Positions 452-6,637 are shown, counted from the first letter of the stretch. The stretch: 6,638 nt of DNA from Candidatus Wukongarchaeum yapensis (GCA_016840425.1 JAEOSI010000127.1:1-6638); one strand, 5' to 3'. Program-made: numbers and translations. The notes: generated from the sequence alone by a model not told the origin.

Positions 452-3136
452 CTAGTCAGAACTTTTTTCCATCATTCCTCTATATCTAGAATCTTTAGGA
501 AAACCGTATAATTTGAAAACTAAATCATTGATTTCATCATCAGTTCTTTGAATTTGCTTCTTAATTTTTTCTCTTTCTTCATGCATATCATAATATTTTT
601 GCTCAAGTTTAGTTGTTTTTTCCATCCTCTTGTTTAGTTCATTCAATTTTTTGTTTAAATCAAGAATTTTATCGACTTTTGAAATTACTAGTTTTTGATC
701 TTCTGATTTCACTTGTTTAATAGGGAATTTCTTCACATAACTCAAGTTAATTCGTGGATAAATATTTTCACCCATCAATTTTTTATAATAATACATCATC
801 AATTTAGAATTAATCAAGCCAAGCAAATATCTTAGATCATATTTGCTATCTTTCATGGGACATAAACATAAAACACTTTTAAGACCGTAGTATTGTTCCG
901 TATCTAATGTAGCAATTATATTCCTTCCTATATACCTCATAATTATTTTCTCTTTCGCCAAAAAGAAGCGTTCTTCTCTAGCTCTTTCAAGTAATTTTTT
1001 ATCGTATAAGACATACTTTTTATCAAAATTAAAACCATAGCGATAAATGTCTCTACCATCTAAAACTTTTTTATATTTTTTGTTTGTGCGTTTATCTAAT
1101 AAGTACTCTTTATGTTTTTTCATATCTGATTTAGTAGACCATATCTGTATTCCACACGATGGTTCAACTATGTCCTCCAAAGGTACGGTATTATCTAAAA
1201 TTTTGTCAAGTAATTTAGCTTCTGCCTTTGTTTTTTCTGTAAATATAAACCTCTTTTTGGGAGTATTATAGAATTCGCTTTGAGTAACATAATATTCTCC
1301 CATAACTTTACCATCTTCATCAATACCTTTTCCTATTGTAACAGTATTGTTGTTTCTTTTCTTAGAGTCGGTTTCTTTTTTTAAGATAATTATCGCTGTG
1401 TCTACTGTTGCTTCATCGAATACTCCAGTTCCCAACCATACAATTTCTTTAATTAAACATGTATCCAAGACATACTTTCTTATATTTTCAAGATAGTCAT
1501 TAGAGAGAAATGTATTAGATACTATAAATCCCAACATCCCACTATTGTTAAGGAAAGTTATTCCTCTTTCAATAAATAGTGAAAACAAATCAAATCGGCC
1601 TTTAGCAGTTTTTAAAAACTTTTTATAAACTTTTATTTTGTCTTTCCTGATATTCCTAATCTGAACATAAGGCGGATTGCTAACAACAACATCAAATTTT
1701 TTGGGAAAATCTTCTTCTATTATTATTTTTTCTTTTATGTTATTAATGTTCTTTCTTTCAATTTCCGCCCATCTTATTAAGCTTGAGATTAGACTATCTC
1801 CTTCTACAACATTTATAAAATTAGTCTTATATTCAATTCCTCTTAACGCTAAGTTCATTCCAGACAATTGAACAGCAAATGGATTTATATCAATTCCATA
1901 AATATTGTTCTTCAAAATCTGCTCATGAATTACATCTACTGCCCAATCCTCTTTTTTGTATTGCTTTTTTAATCTATCATAAACCCTTATTAGAAATCCT
2001 CCAGAACCACAAGCAGGGTCTAAAATTTTTTTATCTGTTGTAATCTTTAATTGGTCTAAAATATGATTAATAACCCATTCAGGAGTATAGAATTGCCCCA
2101 ACTCCTTTCTTTCCTTTTCGTCAATGTGCAATTCATAGACTTTGCCTAGAATATCACTGTCTATATTTTTGAAATTATATTCTGATAATTGAATAATGAT
2201 TTTTTCTATGTTGCTTTCTTCAAATTCTATTTTATCAAAAAATTTTTGTTCGAAAATTGCTCTATAATCGACTTTCAAAATTTCTCTAAAACCAGACTCT
2301 ACTAATTCTCTTAGACTAAAAGACCTCTGCAAAACATTTATGACTCCCCTAGTTAATTTCGGTTTTACTATTCCCCTATCTTCCGCAATCCTATAAAAAT
2401 AAAGTTTGTTAACAAATGAGTACGCGACCTCTTTACTAAGTTTGTCTATCCATTCTTTTTCATTGTTAATATCCAAACCCGTATTTTTGATCCATTCTTC
2501 AAGGTCTTTCTTAAATTTTATATCTTCCTTATACTTTATCTTAATTTTGGGTTTGCAATCAGTAACCAACAATCTTTTTGCTTTCTTCAGATTGTCTATC
2601 AAAGTGGCAGCAGTAACACTTTCTCTAATAATTTTTTCTTTTTCTTCAGTTAATTTATCTAATTTTTTTGTAGTTAGACTTTCTTTTGAAATCCAGTTAT
2701 ATAACTCACTGAATTGTGTTTCTAACTTCCTTAATTCCACTTTTAGTAACAATCTATCCTTCGGATTAATTACGTTTTCAATAAAGGTTTTATACAATCG
2801 TATTTCTTTACCATTAGTCAATACAAAATAACCCACTTGTTTAGCAGAGGCATAGCCGTATGCCTGCTCTACAAAATCATCTAAATTCATTTCCAAGCTT
2901 TTGGCTTCGACAATAACTTTTGGTTTTCCATTAACAAGTAAGGCATAATCCGCAAACCCTTTCGCTTTAAACTCTAAATCAACATCTCTAGCACTTGTAT
3001 ATCCTAATTCCTCAAGGATGGGTTCAACAATAAATTTCTTTACATTCGCCTCAATTCCAGTTCTTCGAGTCTTTCTTAAGTCATCGAAATCAATATTCTG
3101 AAGTTCTAAGATTTTCCTCCTGTCCATAATCTTCAA
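452..3136 (-). CDS. Type IIG/IIL (Eco57I-like) fused restriction endonuclease / N6-adenine methyltransferase / target-recognition protein, about 891-894 aa
   Basis: N-terminal HsdR_N-like PD-(D/E)xK nuclease (EANVKKFIVEPILEELGY...ADY...VEAK...YFVLTNG); motif X GQFYTP; motif I ILDPACGSGGFL; motif IV NPPY (gamma-class order); TaqI-C-like TRD (EKIIMRYIG...YLLGLINSKL); helical C-terminus ending INDLVFKLYG. Start is TTG 3136 or ATG 3127. Confidence 0.9.
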   Translation of the reverse strand: MKIMDRRKILELQNIDFDDLRKTRRTGIEANVKKFIVEPILEELGYTSARDVDLEFKAKGFADYALLVNGKPKVIVEAKSLEMNLDDFVEQAYGYASAKQVGYFVLTNGKEIRLYKTFIENVINPKDRLLLKVELRKLETQFSELYNWISKESLTTKKLDKLTEEKEKIIRESVTAATLIDNLKKAKRLLVTDCKPKIKIKYKEDIKFKKDLEEWIKNTGLDINNEKEWIDKLSKEVAYSFVNKLYFYRIAEDRGIVKPKLTRGVINVLQRSFSLRELVESGFREILKVDYRAIFEQKFFDKIEFEESNIEKIIIQLSEYNFKNIDSDILGKVYELHIDEKERKELGQFYTPEWVINHILDQLKITTDKKILDPACGSGGFLIRVYDRLKKQYKKEDWAVDVIHEQILKNNIYGIDINPFAVQLSGMNLALRGIEYKTNFINVVEGDSLISSLIRWAEIERKNINNIKEKIIIEEDFPKKFDVVVSNPPYVQIRNIRKDKIKVYKKFLKTAKGRFDLFSLFIERGITFLNNSGMLGFIVSNTFLSNDYLENIRKYVLDTCLIKEIVWLGTGVFDEATVDTAIIILKKETDSKKRNNNTVTIGKGIDEDGKVMGEYYVTQSEFYNTPKKRFIFTEKTKAEAKLLDKILDNTVPLEDIVEPSCGIQIWSTKSDMKKHKEYLLDKRTNKKYKKVLDGRDIYRYGFNFDKKYVLYDKKLLERAREERFFLAKEKIIMRYIGRNIIATLDTEQYYGLKSVLCLCPMKDSKYDLRYLLGLINSKLMMYYYKKLMGENIYPRINLSYVKKFPIKQVKSEDQKLVISKVDKILDLNKKLNELNKRMEKTTKLEQKYYDMHEEREKIKKQIQRTDDEINDLVFKLYGFPKDSRYRGMMEKSSD

Positions 3137-3719: not shown

Positions 3720-4763
3720 ATTGGTGTCAATCTAAGGGGTTTAATGCCTAAGACCACGGTTACTCTGGACTACCTGAAGGGCAAATCCGTTGCCATCGAT
3801 GCTTACAACGCGTTATATCAGTTTCTCGCCATCATCCGTCAACCGGACGGAACACCTCTAAAGGACCGAACCGGCAGAATAACCAGTCACCTAAGCGGTT
3901 TACTCTACCGAACCTCCAACCTCATGGAACGCGAAATCAAAGTCATCTACGTTTTCGACGGTAAGCCTCCCGCCCTCAAAGAGACTGAAATTAAGCGCCG
4001 AAAACGGGTGAAAGAAGAAGCTCTGGTAAAGTATGAGCAAGCCCTGCAGAAAGGCGACTTGGAGGAAGCGCGCGTTTACGCGCAGGCAACTTCCCGCCTG
4101 AAAGACTACATGGAAGACGACGCCAAAAGGCTTCTGACGCTCATGGGCATCCCGTGGGTGCAAGCCCCCTCGGAAGGCGAAGCCCAAGCCGCTTACATCA
4201 CAAAACGCGGCGACTCCGACTATTGCGCCAGCCAAGACTACGATTCGCTTCTGTTCGGAGCGCCTCAGCTTGCAAGAAACATCGCCATAACGGGACGAAG
4301 GAAAATTCCGAGAAAAAACGTTTACATTCAAGTGGAACCTGAAATCGTGAGTCTGGATAAAGCCTTAAAGGAGTTAGACATAACCCACGAACAGCTCGTG
4401 GACATAGGCATCCTCATTGGAACAGACTTTAACCCAGACGGCGTGAAGGGCATAGGACCAAAAACCGCGCTCAAACTCATAAAACAACACGGAACTCTAG
4501 AAGACGTGCTACCGACCTTAAAGGAAGCTGAATTCCCCGTGGAACCCCAAAAAATTCGCGAAGTCTTTCTAGAACCAAAAGTCACAGACAACTACCAGAT
4601 TCAATGGATGGAACCCAACGTGGAAGAAGCCGTGGAGTTTCTGTGCGAGCAAAGGGACTTCAGCGAAGAACGCGTAAGAAAAGCACTGAAAAAAGTAACT
4701 GAAGGCATGAAGAAAATCAAAAGCAAAACAACGCTGGAAGCGTGGTTCACGAAACCGAGTTAG
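3720..4763 (+). CDS. fen: Flap endonuclease 1 (archaeal FEN-1), 347 aa if initiated at ATT 3720 (339 aa from ATG 3744)
   Basis: In-frame (I)GVNL N-terminus, AIDAYN, VFDGKPP, EGEAQAA, SQDYDSLLFG, GTDFN, GIGPKTA (H2TH) and C-terminal PIP-like TTLEAWF. All catalytic acidic residues present. Confidence 0.96.
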   Translation: MGVNLRGLMPKTTVTLDYLKGKSVAIDAYNALYQFLAIIRQPDGTPLKDRTGRITSHLSGLLYRTSNLMEREIKVIYVFDGKPPALKETEIKRRKRVKEEALVKYEQALQKGDLEEARVYAQATSRLKDYMEDDAKRLLTLMGIPWVQAPSEGEAQAAYITKRGDSDYCASQDYDSLLFGAPQLARNIAITGRRKIPRKNVYIQVEPEIVSLDKALKELDITHEQLVDIGILIGTDFNPDGVKGIGPKTALKLIKQHGTLEDVLPTLKEAEFPVEPQKIREVFLEPKVTDNYQIQWMEPNVEEAVEFLCEQRDFSEERVRKALKKVTEGMKKIKSKTTLEAWFTKPS

Positions 4764-5479
4764 AACCTGTGCCCATATTTCCCGGTCAAAGGCACGAAGG
4801 CCACTCCGCCCAAATTCTCCTGAAAAAGCTTATCGTCCTTCTTTCTCACGCGCATTAAAGTCTGATAAAAACGAACGCCGCCAACAGGAATAACCAAAAC
4901 CCCGCCGGTTTTAAGCTGATCCGTCAAAGGCTCAGGCACACAAGGAGCCGCTGCCGTAACCAAAACCCGATCGTAAGGAGCCTCCTCGGCGTATCCAAGC
5001 GACCCGTCCCCGCAGACAACCGTAATGCGGTCACCGTAACCCGCCCTCTCAATATTGTTTTTCGCAAAAGCAGCCAATTCAGAGATGACCTCTACCGTGT
5101 AAACATGCCCCCATTTTTTCTTCGGCGCGTCTGTGGGAGCCACAATCTCAGCTACTGTGGAGGCATGCCACCCAGAGCCCGCCCCAACCTCTAGAACTTT
5201 GTGCCCCGCTTCCAACTCGAGGGCTTCATCCATGATGGAAACCATGTTTCGCCCGGCTGACCGCGTGGATCAACCGAGAGGCGCAGAAATGGTCTGCCCA
5301 TACCCTATGGAAAGCGGGGTGTCCACAGCCGCATACGCTCGTACTTGCTCAGGAACAAACTGATCCCTGCAGACTCGACGCAACGCCCTGATAACCTGAG
5401 GCGACTTAAGTATGCCTTCCGCGGTCAACCGCTTAACTAAGCCTTCCCACTTTTGCCCAGACTTATTCAGCTCTACCAT
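4760..5479 (-). CDS. pcm: Protein-L-isoaspartate O-methyltransferase, join(5479..5278, 5247..4760), 229 aa after removal of a 30-nt intron
   Basis: Exon 1 has RDQFVP...DTPLSIGYGQTISAP. Exon 2 has MVSIM, motif I VLEVGAGSG, GDGSLGYAEEAPYDRVLVTAAAP and LKTGGVLVIPVG. Both ORF-track pieces are in the same frame, separated by 33 nt where homologues have one His codon. Confidence 0.93.
5248..5277 (-). other. Putative BHB (tRNA-endonuclease-type) intron in pcm mRNA, 30 nt: UCGGUUGAUCCACGCGGUCAGCCGGGCGAA
   Basis: Central helix CGCC(5283-5280)/GGCG(5253-5250); 3-nt bulges UCU(5279-5277) and AAA(5249-5247); 9-bp intron stem with a 5-nt loop; exon-side pairs G5284-C5246 and U5285-A5245. Cutting after the 2nd nt of each bulge yields CCU C|AC AUG = Pro-His-Met. 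Confidence 0.88.
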
Positions 5480-5491
5480 CGTGCGGTCCCT

Positions 5492-5498
5492 TCACTCC
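5492..5498 (-). promoter_or_regulatory. RBS GGAGTGA upstream of pcm
   Basis: SD-like heptamer 12 nt upstream of ATG 5479. Confidence 0.5.
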
Positions 5499-5563
5499 AG
5501 ATTGGAACAAAAGAAATGTTAGCATAACTGAGTAAAAAGCCTGTTCTTTCAGCTCGATGGGAT

Positions 5564-6637
5564 TTATTGAAAGTTTGTTTGGAATCTTGCTTTCTGCACT
5601 CCCGCTGCTCGTCTATCTTTGGCAGTCATCTCAAACAGTCTCTTCAGCAGTTCAATGTCCTCTTTAGTCTGCTTCACTTCTCTCCGAGCCATCATCCTCT
5701 TCTGCGTCTTAATGGCTGACTCTAAATAAAGCTCCACAGGATCCCATCCTAAGCTCTTCGCCCAAATAGTGAAGGACGGAATGTCCTCAGCTATGAATCC
5801 ATGCATTTGCGATGCTATGCCTATTTTCTTTCCAGCATAAATCTTCGTGCCTATCGAAGTTTTCGCGTAGTCGCCGATGAAACATCCCATCTTCATTTGA
5901 CCTGAATCCACAGTTTTTCCATCCAATGACACCCTTATGGTTCCGTAGGTGTTCTTGATGTCTGAGGTTGTGGTGTCCGCCGCTATGTTCACCCATTCTC
6001 CGATATAGGCGTGCCCCACGAATCCCGTGTGATACTTGTTCGCGTATCCATGAATGATTGTTTCCTCCACTTCTCCGCCAATGCGGCACACATCACCGAT
6101 GTTGCAGCCTTCCCGTATGAGCCCACTAACAATCCTTGTGTTGTCCCCTATATAGGTTGGACCGGTAATCCTTGAACCCCCATGCACTTCTGTTCCTTCA
6201 CCTATGTAGATCGGACCGTCCCGAGCGTCAAGCGTAACGTTAGCTTCAACAAACGAGTCCTTACCCACATACACGTTTTCTTCCTCGCCGTATATGGCGG
6301 CTCTTTCGTCTATTGTTCCTTCGCTTTTCTTTTTTCCTAGTGCCTTAAAGTCTTCTTTGATTAACTCTGTGTTTTCGTTGATTAGGTCCCAAGGATAACT
6401 GCACAAAGGCGAATTTTGTGTTTCCAATTTTTTGCACTCTCTCATCAAGTTTTTCGTCGAAAAAGGAGTGAGAGGTTCACATAAGACCTCGCCGTATTTC
6501 CTAGCGGTTTTTTCCTTCAAATGAGCTAGTACTGTTCTGTGGTGGCACGAAATCAGAGTGTTTTTGGAGAGCTTTTCCTCAACTAACCGCCTTATTTCTC
6601 CGTTTGCCATAAGCATTCCATTGACTAAGAGCACATC
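5564..6637 (-). CDS. GlmU-like sugar nucleotidyltransferase / hexapeptide-repeat acetyltransferase ('alternative GlmU' type), 5'-truncated by the window edge
   Basis: LLVNG, YPWDLI, left-handed beta-helix hexapeptide repeats (GPIYIGEGTEVHGGSRITGPTYIGDNT), GGEVEETII and NKYHTGFVGHAYIGEWVN...DIKNTYG. Frame open to 6637. Confidence 0.8.
   Translation of the reverse strand, partial: DVLLVNGMLMANGEIRRLVEEKLSKNTLISCHHRTVLAHLKEKTARKYGEVLCEPLTPFSTKNLMRECKKLETQNSPLCSYPWDLINENTELIKEDFKALGKKKSEGTIDERAAIYGEEENVYVGKDSFVEANVTLDARDGPIYIGEGTEVHGGSRITGPTYIGDNTRIVSGLIREGCNIGDVCRIGGEVEETIIHGYANKYHTGFVGHAYIGEWVNIAADTTTSDIKNTYGTIRVSLDGKTVDSGQMKMGCFIGDYAKTSIGTKIYAGKKIGIASQMHGFIAEDIPSFTIWAKSLGWDPVELYLESAIKTQKRMMARREVKQTKEDIELLKRLFEMTAKDRRAAGVQKARFQTNFQ

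Follow-up and report, generated by a model that had tools for sequence, protein, structure and literature searches.

We analyzed a 6,638-nt stretch of archaeal DNA (GCA_016840425.1 JAEOSI010000127.1:1-6638; this whole stretch is referred to as the window) that is assigned to Candidatus Wukongarchaeum yapensis. Its minus-strand pcm gene, which encodes a PIMT methyltransferase (PF01135), is interrupted by 30 nt (positions 5277-5248) that represent a real bulge-helix-bulge (BHB) intron in the coding sequence, conserved, under selection and very probably spliced. An initial annotation of the window had proposed such an intron because canonical cuts restore the conserved TISAPH motif, and this core reading is backed here by conservation of the insert among relatives, covariation, variable insert lengths that are mostly indivisible by three, precise intron-less alleles and purifying selection.

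The interrupted pcm gene

The insert breaks pcm into an upstream piece (5479-5278) and a downstream piece (5247-4760) and carries an in-frame UGA at 5272-5270. Read across the break, the upstream frame continues as GCG (5284-5282), CCU (5281-5279), CUC, GGU and UGA, and its translation (5479-5270) ends in ...GQTISAPLG followed by the stop; the downstream frame starts with an ATG at 5245 and runs to the stop at 4760. Both pieces match the Pfam PCMT profile well above the cut-off of 20.3 bits (46 and 148 bits), the upstream piece covering profile positions 4-59 (E = 7e-12) and the downstream piece positions 61-208 (E = 5e-43), with exactly one position absent at the break. In silico excision of 5277-5248 gave a 690-nt open reading frame (ORF) encoding 229 amino acids and containing QTISAPHMV, which reproduces the result of the excision rule applied in the initial annotation, whose minus-strand transcription and coordinates also match the window exactly. 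In this predicted spliced gene, exon 1 (5278-5479) starts with Met1 and ends one base into the His68 codon, and exon 2 (4760-5247) runs from the other two bases of that codon to the stop, the junction being exon 1 ...GCGCCTC + ACATGGTT.... The TISAPHM motif exists only once the insert is removed, and the motif for binding of S-adenosylmethionine (SAM), VLEVGAGSG, is located in exon 2.

Comparison of 92 related pcm loci, all processed with a general parser, identified 84 with an insert, seven that are intron-less and one that is cut by a contig end. The insert is found at exactly this nucleotide in all 84 loci (81 distinct sequences, 28-34 nt), and tblastn alignments of the spliced protein to the pcm loci of relatives break exactly at residue 68, with differing frame offsets. 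Insert length is indivisible by three in 70 of the 84 loci, which indicates that the insert cannot be translated through, and 24 introns lack an in-frame stop (in the insert plus the following stretch read, i.e., insert + 12 nt). A cut after the second base of each bulge yields QT[IVA]SAPHM in 84/84 cases. Base 2 of the 5' bulge, which supplies the first base of the His codon, is invariably C, and base 3 of the 3' bulge is invariably A, followed by C (82 loci) or U (2 loci), giving the His codon CAY. For 19 introns in which the 5' bulge does not end in A (including that of the window), His results solely from a cut after bulge base 2. The intron-less alleles carry CAC or CAT at the predicted junction and align to the spliced product without gaps, and an intron identical to that of the window is present in a locus from a Bathyarchaeia metagenome-assembled genome (MAG; locus L033).

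The minimum free energy (MFE) fold of the RNA (-25.3 kcal/mol, z = -3.3; an equally good fold was obtained for 1 of 200 shuffled sequences) reproduces the central 4-bp helix, the 5' bulge and the intron hairpin. The 5' strand of the central helix (CGCC, 5280-5283) belongs to the Ala-Pro codons of exon 1 and pairs with the 3' strand in the intron (GGCG, 5250-5253); this pairing is also seen in the homologues. The 5' bulge is UCU (5277-5279; predicted cut between C5278 and U5277), the 3' bulge is AAA (5247-5249; predicted cut between A5248 and A5247) and the intron hairpin (5254-5276) consists of a 9-bp stem (5276-5268 with 5262-5254, including two G-U pairs) that closes the loop CACGC (5267-5263). 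On the exon side, the MFE fold has a 5 × 4 internal loop, and the UG/CA pairs of the initial annotation (U5285 and G5284 with A5245 and C5246; 5' half 5284-5285, 3' half 5245-5246) are absent from it. Conservation on the exon side is limited to the closing pair (82 G-C and two G-U among the 84 homologues) and does not extend to the second pair; 55 loci have a contiguous exon-side helix of just 1 bp, 27 (including the window) one of 2 bp and two one of 3 bp. The strict hBHBh' form that had been proposed is therefore overstated, and the pcm motif is, as judged from the fold and these alignments, a BHB with a minimal exon-side helix for which the relaxed form is the better description.

The central helix is paired in 84/84 loci (79 CGCC/GGCG, 4 CACC/GGTG and 1 CGCC/GGTG), with 3-nt bulges retained throughout, and further CACC/GGTG introns were encountered in a wider survey of Thermoproteota. 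When covariation was measured on an alignment of 12 sequences, 90% of cells were paired, as compared to 33-40% when the 3' partner was slid by 1-3 columns, and double-sided changes were observed in 9/9 intron-stem pairs. In the same alignment the central helix is 100% paired, including a compensatory change from G-C to A-U, and all sequences retain the closing G-C pair; pairing in the farther exon helix amounts to 78%, and this helix is not conserved. Moreover, pairs that are valid only on the sense strand predominate among the 84 introns (71 G-U as compared to 25 A-C), which upholds the strand argument for selection at the RNA level that had been based on the two G-U pairs of the window. Overall, these comparisons argue that the RNA structure of the pcm insert is under selection.

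The comparisons also indicate that the gene itself is functional. With regard to the closest relative, pcm shows a ratio of non-synonymous to synonymous substitutions (dN/dS) of 0.14 (dS, 0.43), indicating that the spliced frame is under purifying selection. The intron-bearing pcm is the sole strong PCMT match in all four genomes checked, i.e., the nearest Bathyarchaeia genome (G061) and the Asgard genomes G013 and G037 (single contigs) and G007 (8 contigs), three of the four being closed or near-closed; the remaining PCMT matches in these genomes score 47 bits or less and are confined to the generic SAM-binding region. DNA contigs from two studies, one of which may be the source sample, bridge 5248-5277 without gaps, showing that the insert is not an assembly artefact, and the joined, intron-free form was not seen among them. 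A population variant at 5257 converts the wobble pair U5273-G5257 into U-A, and two other variants are located in the loop. A scan of the window against Rfam at gathering thresholds gave no match, and no tRNA was found in the window by a tRNA scan. A group I or group II self-splicing intron, which would measure hundreds of nucleotides and have a ribozyme core that covariance models recognize, was considered and rejected, as the insert has only 30 nt and the window contains no Rfam match.

Splicing model and alternative explanations

We infer the following course of events. The pcm pre-mRNA would fold such that CGCC of exon 1 pairs with GGCG of the intron, with a 3-nt bulge on each strand and the 9-bp intron hairpin to one side; EndA, which in this lineage would probably be the crenarchaeal-type (alpha-beta)2 enzyme, would cut after base 2 of each bulge, and RtcB would ligate the exons, recreating the His codon CAC and the TISAPHM motif. 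The 30-nt intron would be set free, probably as a circle, and on mRNA that remains unspliced, translation would be expected to halt at the UGA after 69 residues. Cleavage, ligation, the identity of the enzymes and circularization are all predicted from sequence. The nearest relative genome (G061) encodes RtcB and two EndA paralogs, one of which finds its best matches in catalytic alpha chains of crenarchaeal enzymes (3p1z_B, 3ajv_B, 2cv8 and 2zyz_B), while the second lacks the His after the conserved Tyr; this pair probably represents the layout of an (alpha-beta)2 enzyme. An (alpha-beta)2 EndA with an L1 insert has been reported to be common to TACK and Asgard archaea and to be able to cut relaxed BHB motifs (PMC5829648).

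Several observations weigh against a spliced BHB intron. With 2 bp in the window and mostly 1 bp among the homologues, the exon-side helix is minimal and does not correspond to the textbook hBHBh', which means that cleavage at the 3' site would rely on an enzyme of broad specificity. BHB-like geometry alone is common by chance, with 9,492 motifs found in a scan of the 2.16-Mb genome of the bin as compared to 9,141 for a decoy geometry, and the significance of the pcm motif thus rests on the comparison with relatives; the sequences compared are mutually related, and statistics based on shuffling overstate significance. The organism of the window is known from a 6.6-kb contig alone, and its EndA and RtcB are those expected from a relative with 85% nucleotide identity.

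One alternative explanation is a genuinely split gene, in which a 69-amino-acid N-terminal fragment and a 161-amino-acid C-terminal fragment (from the ATG at 5245) are made separately and assemble, the hairpin serving, for example, transcript stability. The ATG, which corresponds to Met69 of the spliced protein, does lie only 2 nt past the insert, and from there the reading frame stays open for 161 amino acids. We nevertheless consider a split gene very unlikely, as the products would lack the invariant His of SAPHM, whose codon is divided between the two sides, as there would be no reason for the 4-bp helix and 3-nt bulges to be kept in 84/84 loci or for the bulge C and A to be fixed, and as the intron-less alleles are single continuous ORFs with the predicted junction. 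Programmed translational bypassing, in which the ribosome would hop over the structured 28-34 nt as in gene 60 of phage T4, could account for a stable hairpin placed right after a stop codon in a coding gap and for the variable length of the gap. A hop could not produce the His, since no intact CAY is present on either side, the C being contributed from the 5' side and the AY from the 3' side. There is no visible match between a take-off and a landing codon, 24 of the 84 introns have no in-frame stop in the stretch read, and what is conserved corresponds to a substrate of EndA; bypassing is therefore highly improbable.

It could also be argued that pcm has been inactivated by insertion of a palindrome or of a small mobile element, or that the interruption is an assembly or sequencing artefact, given that a stop codon formally interrupts the gene and that the bin containing the window has other pcm paralogs on contigs C90 and C62. 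Such an explanation is almost certainly incorrect: the dN/dS is low, the insert is fixed at one nucleotide position in two phyla despite sequence divergence, the intron-bearing gene is the sole PCMT in the four genomes checked, independent DNA contigs span the insert, and the C90 and C62 paralogs are those of the Asgard host and not of the organism from which the contig comes (see below). Overall, we favor a BHB intron that would be removed by EndA and RtcB.

Source of the contig, distribution and evolution

Although the window is binned with an Asgard genome (G000, in which it is contig C126), several comparisons indicate that it is Bathyarchaeia DNA that was mis-binned into the Asgard MAG. 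Positions 3723-6445, which contain FEN1, pcm and a nucleotidyl-transferase gene, are colinear with a 114-kb contig of a Bathyarchaeia MAG (L033) at 85% nucleotide identity. Housekeeping genes on the contig have a GC content of 46-54%, as compared to 38 ± 1.6% for the genome, and a second FEN1 (57% identical) is present on contig C210 of the same bin. In a quick pcm tree (support values from the Shimodaira-Hasegawa-like approximate likelihood ratio test, SH-aLRT), the window and L033 group together (support 98) within a Bathyarchaeia clade (support 99), while the pcm on contig C90 of the bin groups with the pcm of a genome from the same genus (support 95). The bin genome encodes profilin. Two pcm paralogs without interruption are present in the Asgard host (C90:2678-3151 and C62:2017-2460), the one on C90 being orthologous to the pcm of the same-genus genome. 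As the contig is Bathyarchaeia DNA by these comparisons, EndA and RtcB, which are both found in the surrounding Asgard bin, are not the cognate enzymes there.

Whole-contig composition gave no flag (GC z = 1.2; tetranucleotide distance at approx. the 88th percentile). The average GC content of the contig (40%) hid foreign DNA of approx. 50% GC because a restriction-modification gene of 29% GC pulled the average down. This gene (452-3136, minus strand) encodes an 894-amino-acid type IIG-like restriction-modification fusion with N6_Mtase, Eco57I, TaqI_C and HSDR_N domains and is probably a recently acquired island; the L033 alignment, which starts at 3723, is uninformative on its presence there, as L033 extends only 1.2 kb from pcm in that direction. 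Average GC content can thus mask a foreign contig, which is of practical relevance for MAG hygiene. FEN1 (3744-4763, plus strand) and pcm (4760-5479, minus strand) are convergent and overlap by 4 nt at their stop codons (4760-4763); the FEN1-pcm arrangement is common to many Bathyarchaeia loci.

The best 80 named relatives are all Bathyarchaeia/Bathyarchaeota MAGs, among which the intron is present in 72 and absent in seven, with one locus cut by a contig end. For wider surveys, a DNA pattern for the split-gene signature was used. This signature was matched in 17 of 399 other Asgard genomes, all of which belong to five families (5/5, 6/6, 3/4, 2/3 and 1/1 genomes, respectively); no match was found in three of the larger Asgard families (0/135, 0/31 and 0/22 genomes). 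Among 251 evenly drawn Thermoproteota genomes, treated as one group, 30 matched, one of these matches being probably due to chance. A reversed-pattern control gave no matches in either the Asgard or the Thermoproteota survey. All intron-bearing genomes of the phylum of the bin encode a eukaryote-type actin (391-466 bits), which identifies them as Asgard archaea; actin was taken as the Asgard marker because profilin was matched in just 2/5 genomes. The actin gene and the split pcm share a contig in one intron-bearing genome, and in three others they lie together on a chromosome assembled as a single contig or on one large contig.

The intron-less Bathyarchaeia alleles (L062, L078, L083, L090, L098, L106 and L111) are nested at several places within intron-bearing clades in the quick tree, which implies several independent events of precise loss. 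Two MAGs named 'Candidatus Bathyarchaeum sp.' differ in this respect, L067 having the intron and L083 lacking it. The initial annotation had proposed a search of relatives for intron-less alleles and compensatory changes, and both were found, i.e., alleles with the predicted junction and compensatory changes in the helix; likewise, homologous inserts departing from the 4-bp helix and 3-nt bulges, which it had named as contrary evidence, did not occur among the 84 loci. It is tempting to hypothesize that the pcm intron is ancient, i.e., that it predates the split between Bathyarchaeia (TACK) and Asgard archaea and was retained for billions of years in what is the only pcm copy of many lineages, often being lost precisely and persisting through dependence on EndA and RtcB. 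We regard this scenario as rather unlikely. Alternatively, an intron-bearing pcm may have moved horizontally between the two phyla; the deep branching of the Asgard groups relative to the Bathyarchaeia clade in the quick tree is compatible with either course.

The suggestion that many split genes in such genomes contain introns was not borne out by genome-wide scans. Scans of bin G000 for BHB motifs combined with ORF fusion gave 72 candidates as compared to 63 decoys and, subsequently, 121 as compared to 116; these scans are not discriminating and do not provide a complete list of introns. The sole further candidate that was convincing by eye is a candidate 30-nt BHB intron in the gene for aIF2-alpha (G000:C70:1451-1480, minus strand; locus L117), which is located on a genuinely Asgard contig and splits the S1 domain, the EIF_2_alpha domain being in the downstream piece. 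This insert shows a UCGG/CCGA helix, AAA/AAA bulges and an 8-bp stem, and the gene is uninterrupted in 29/29 relatives; the same-genus allele can be aligned without gaps to the form expected after splicing. The insert is not backed by covariation, and its fold has a z-score of only -1.6. Its 3' part nearly repeats the upstream exon, of which its 5' part is the reverse complement, and this suggests that it arose by fold-back duplication or else is an artefact of assembly. If the pcm intron were indeed ancient, a recent and independent gain in aIF2-alpha of the Asgard bin would indicate that such introns still arise in protein genes. Near-identical 25-nt BHB-like inserts were also observed in copies of a repeated gene (G000:C69:533-557, plus strand, and G000:C178:309-333, minus strand); these have a GAAC/GTTC helix and a stem ATCCTC/GAGGAT, and their excision joins the reading frames (...KKLERVLEIRG...).

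Comparison with known BHB introns and RtcB-dependent splicing

To our knowledge, textbooks describe archaeal protein genes as intron-free, with one exception in a coding region (cbf5). A second case, widespread and under selection in Bathyarchaeia and five Asgard families, would suggest that the tRNA-splicing machinery serves mRNAs more broadly. Since gene callers split or truncate such genes, pcm would be expected to look 'broken' or absent in many MAG annotations. The pcm intron also offers a tractable system in which to study the gain and the precise loss of introns, and their possible regulation, in lineages near the origin of eukaryotes.

In eukaryotes, IRE1/RtcB splicing of HAC1 and XBP1 removes a short coding intron with an endonuclease and an RtcB-type ligase, without the spliceosome, and changes the protein made. 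IRE1/RtcB splicing differs from the system proposed for pcm in its endonuclease, its recognition motif and its documented regulatory role. Were the ancient origin of the pcm intron correct, production of the enzyme would be tied to EndA/RtcB splicing and repair, and would represent an archaeal counterpart of IRE1/RtcB-controlled splicing.

The published BHB introns in mRNA are those in the coding region of cbf5 (Crenarchaeota) and in the 5' untranslated region (UTR) of Haloferax HVO_1309 (PMC2738675, PMC7714728, PMC5829648). A study of EndA substrates from 2020 lists as mRNA cases only cbf5 and one 5'-UTR case (PMC7714728), and mRNA goes unmentioned in a 2026 preprint on the tRNA introns of Asgard archaea. 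No description of an intron in pcm or PIMT was found in the literature searched, which did not cover subscription-only papers. The Asgard distribution, the sole-copy status of the intron-bearing pcm, the cross-check against DNA contigs, the mis-binning of the contig and the negative outcome of the genome-wide scans are new here.

The cbf5 intron is the closest known counterpart in kind. Both introns are of the BHB type, lie within a coding sequence and interrupt the codon of a functionally critical residue; both occur in lineages with a hetero-oligomeric EndA and show a patchy distribution with secondary precise losses, for which, in cbf5, replacement by reverse-transcribed spliced mRNA has been proposed (PMC2738675). 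They differ in that cbf5 encodes a pseudouridine synthase and its intron is found in Desulfurococcales and Sulfolobales, whereas pcm encodes the PIMT methyltransferase and its intron is found in Bathyarchaeia and five Asgard families. In addition, splicing of the cbf5 intron has been demonstrated experimentally (Watanabe 2002; Yoshinari 2006; Yokobori 2009, PMC2738675), whereas splicing of pcm is deduced from sequence. The intron in HVO_1309 of Haloferax volcanii likewise makes an mRNA, rather than a tRNA or rRNA, the substrate of the splicing endonuclease, but it is located in an untranslated leader, leaves the reading frame intact and occurs in a euryarchaeon with a homodimeric alpha'2-type enzyme (PMC7714728). 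Although its host is an mRNA, with no tRNA body to aid recognition, the pcm intron shares with the BHB introns of pre-tRNAs the two 3-nt bulges separated by 4 bp, the predicted cuts, the presumed processing by EndA and RtcB and the small size.
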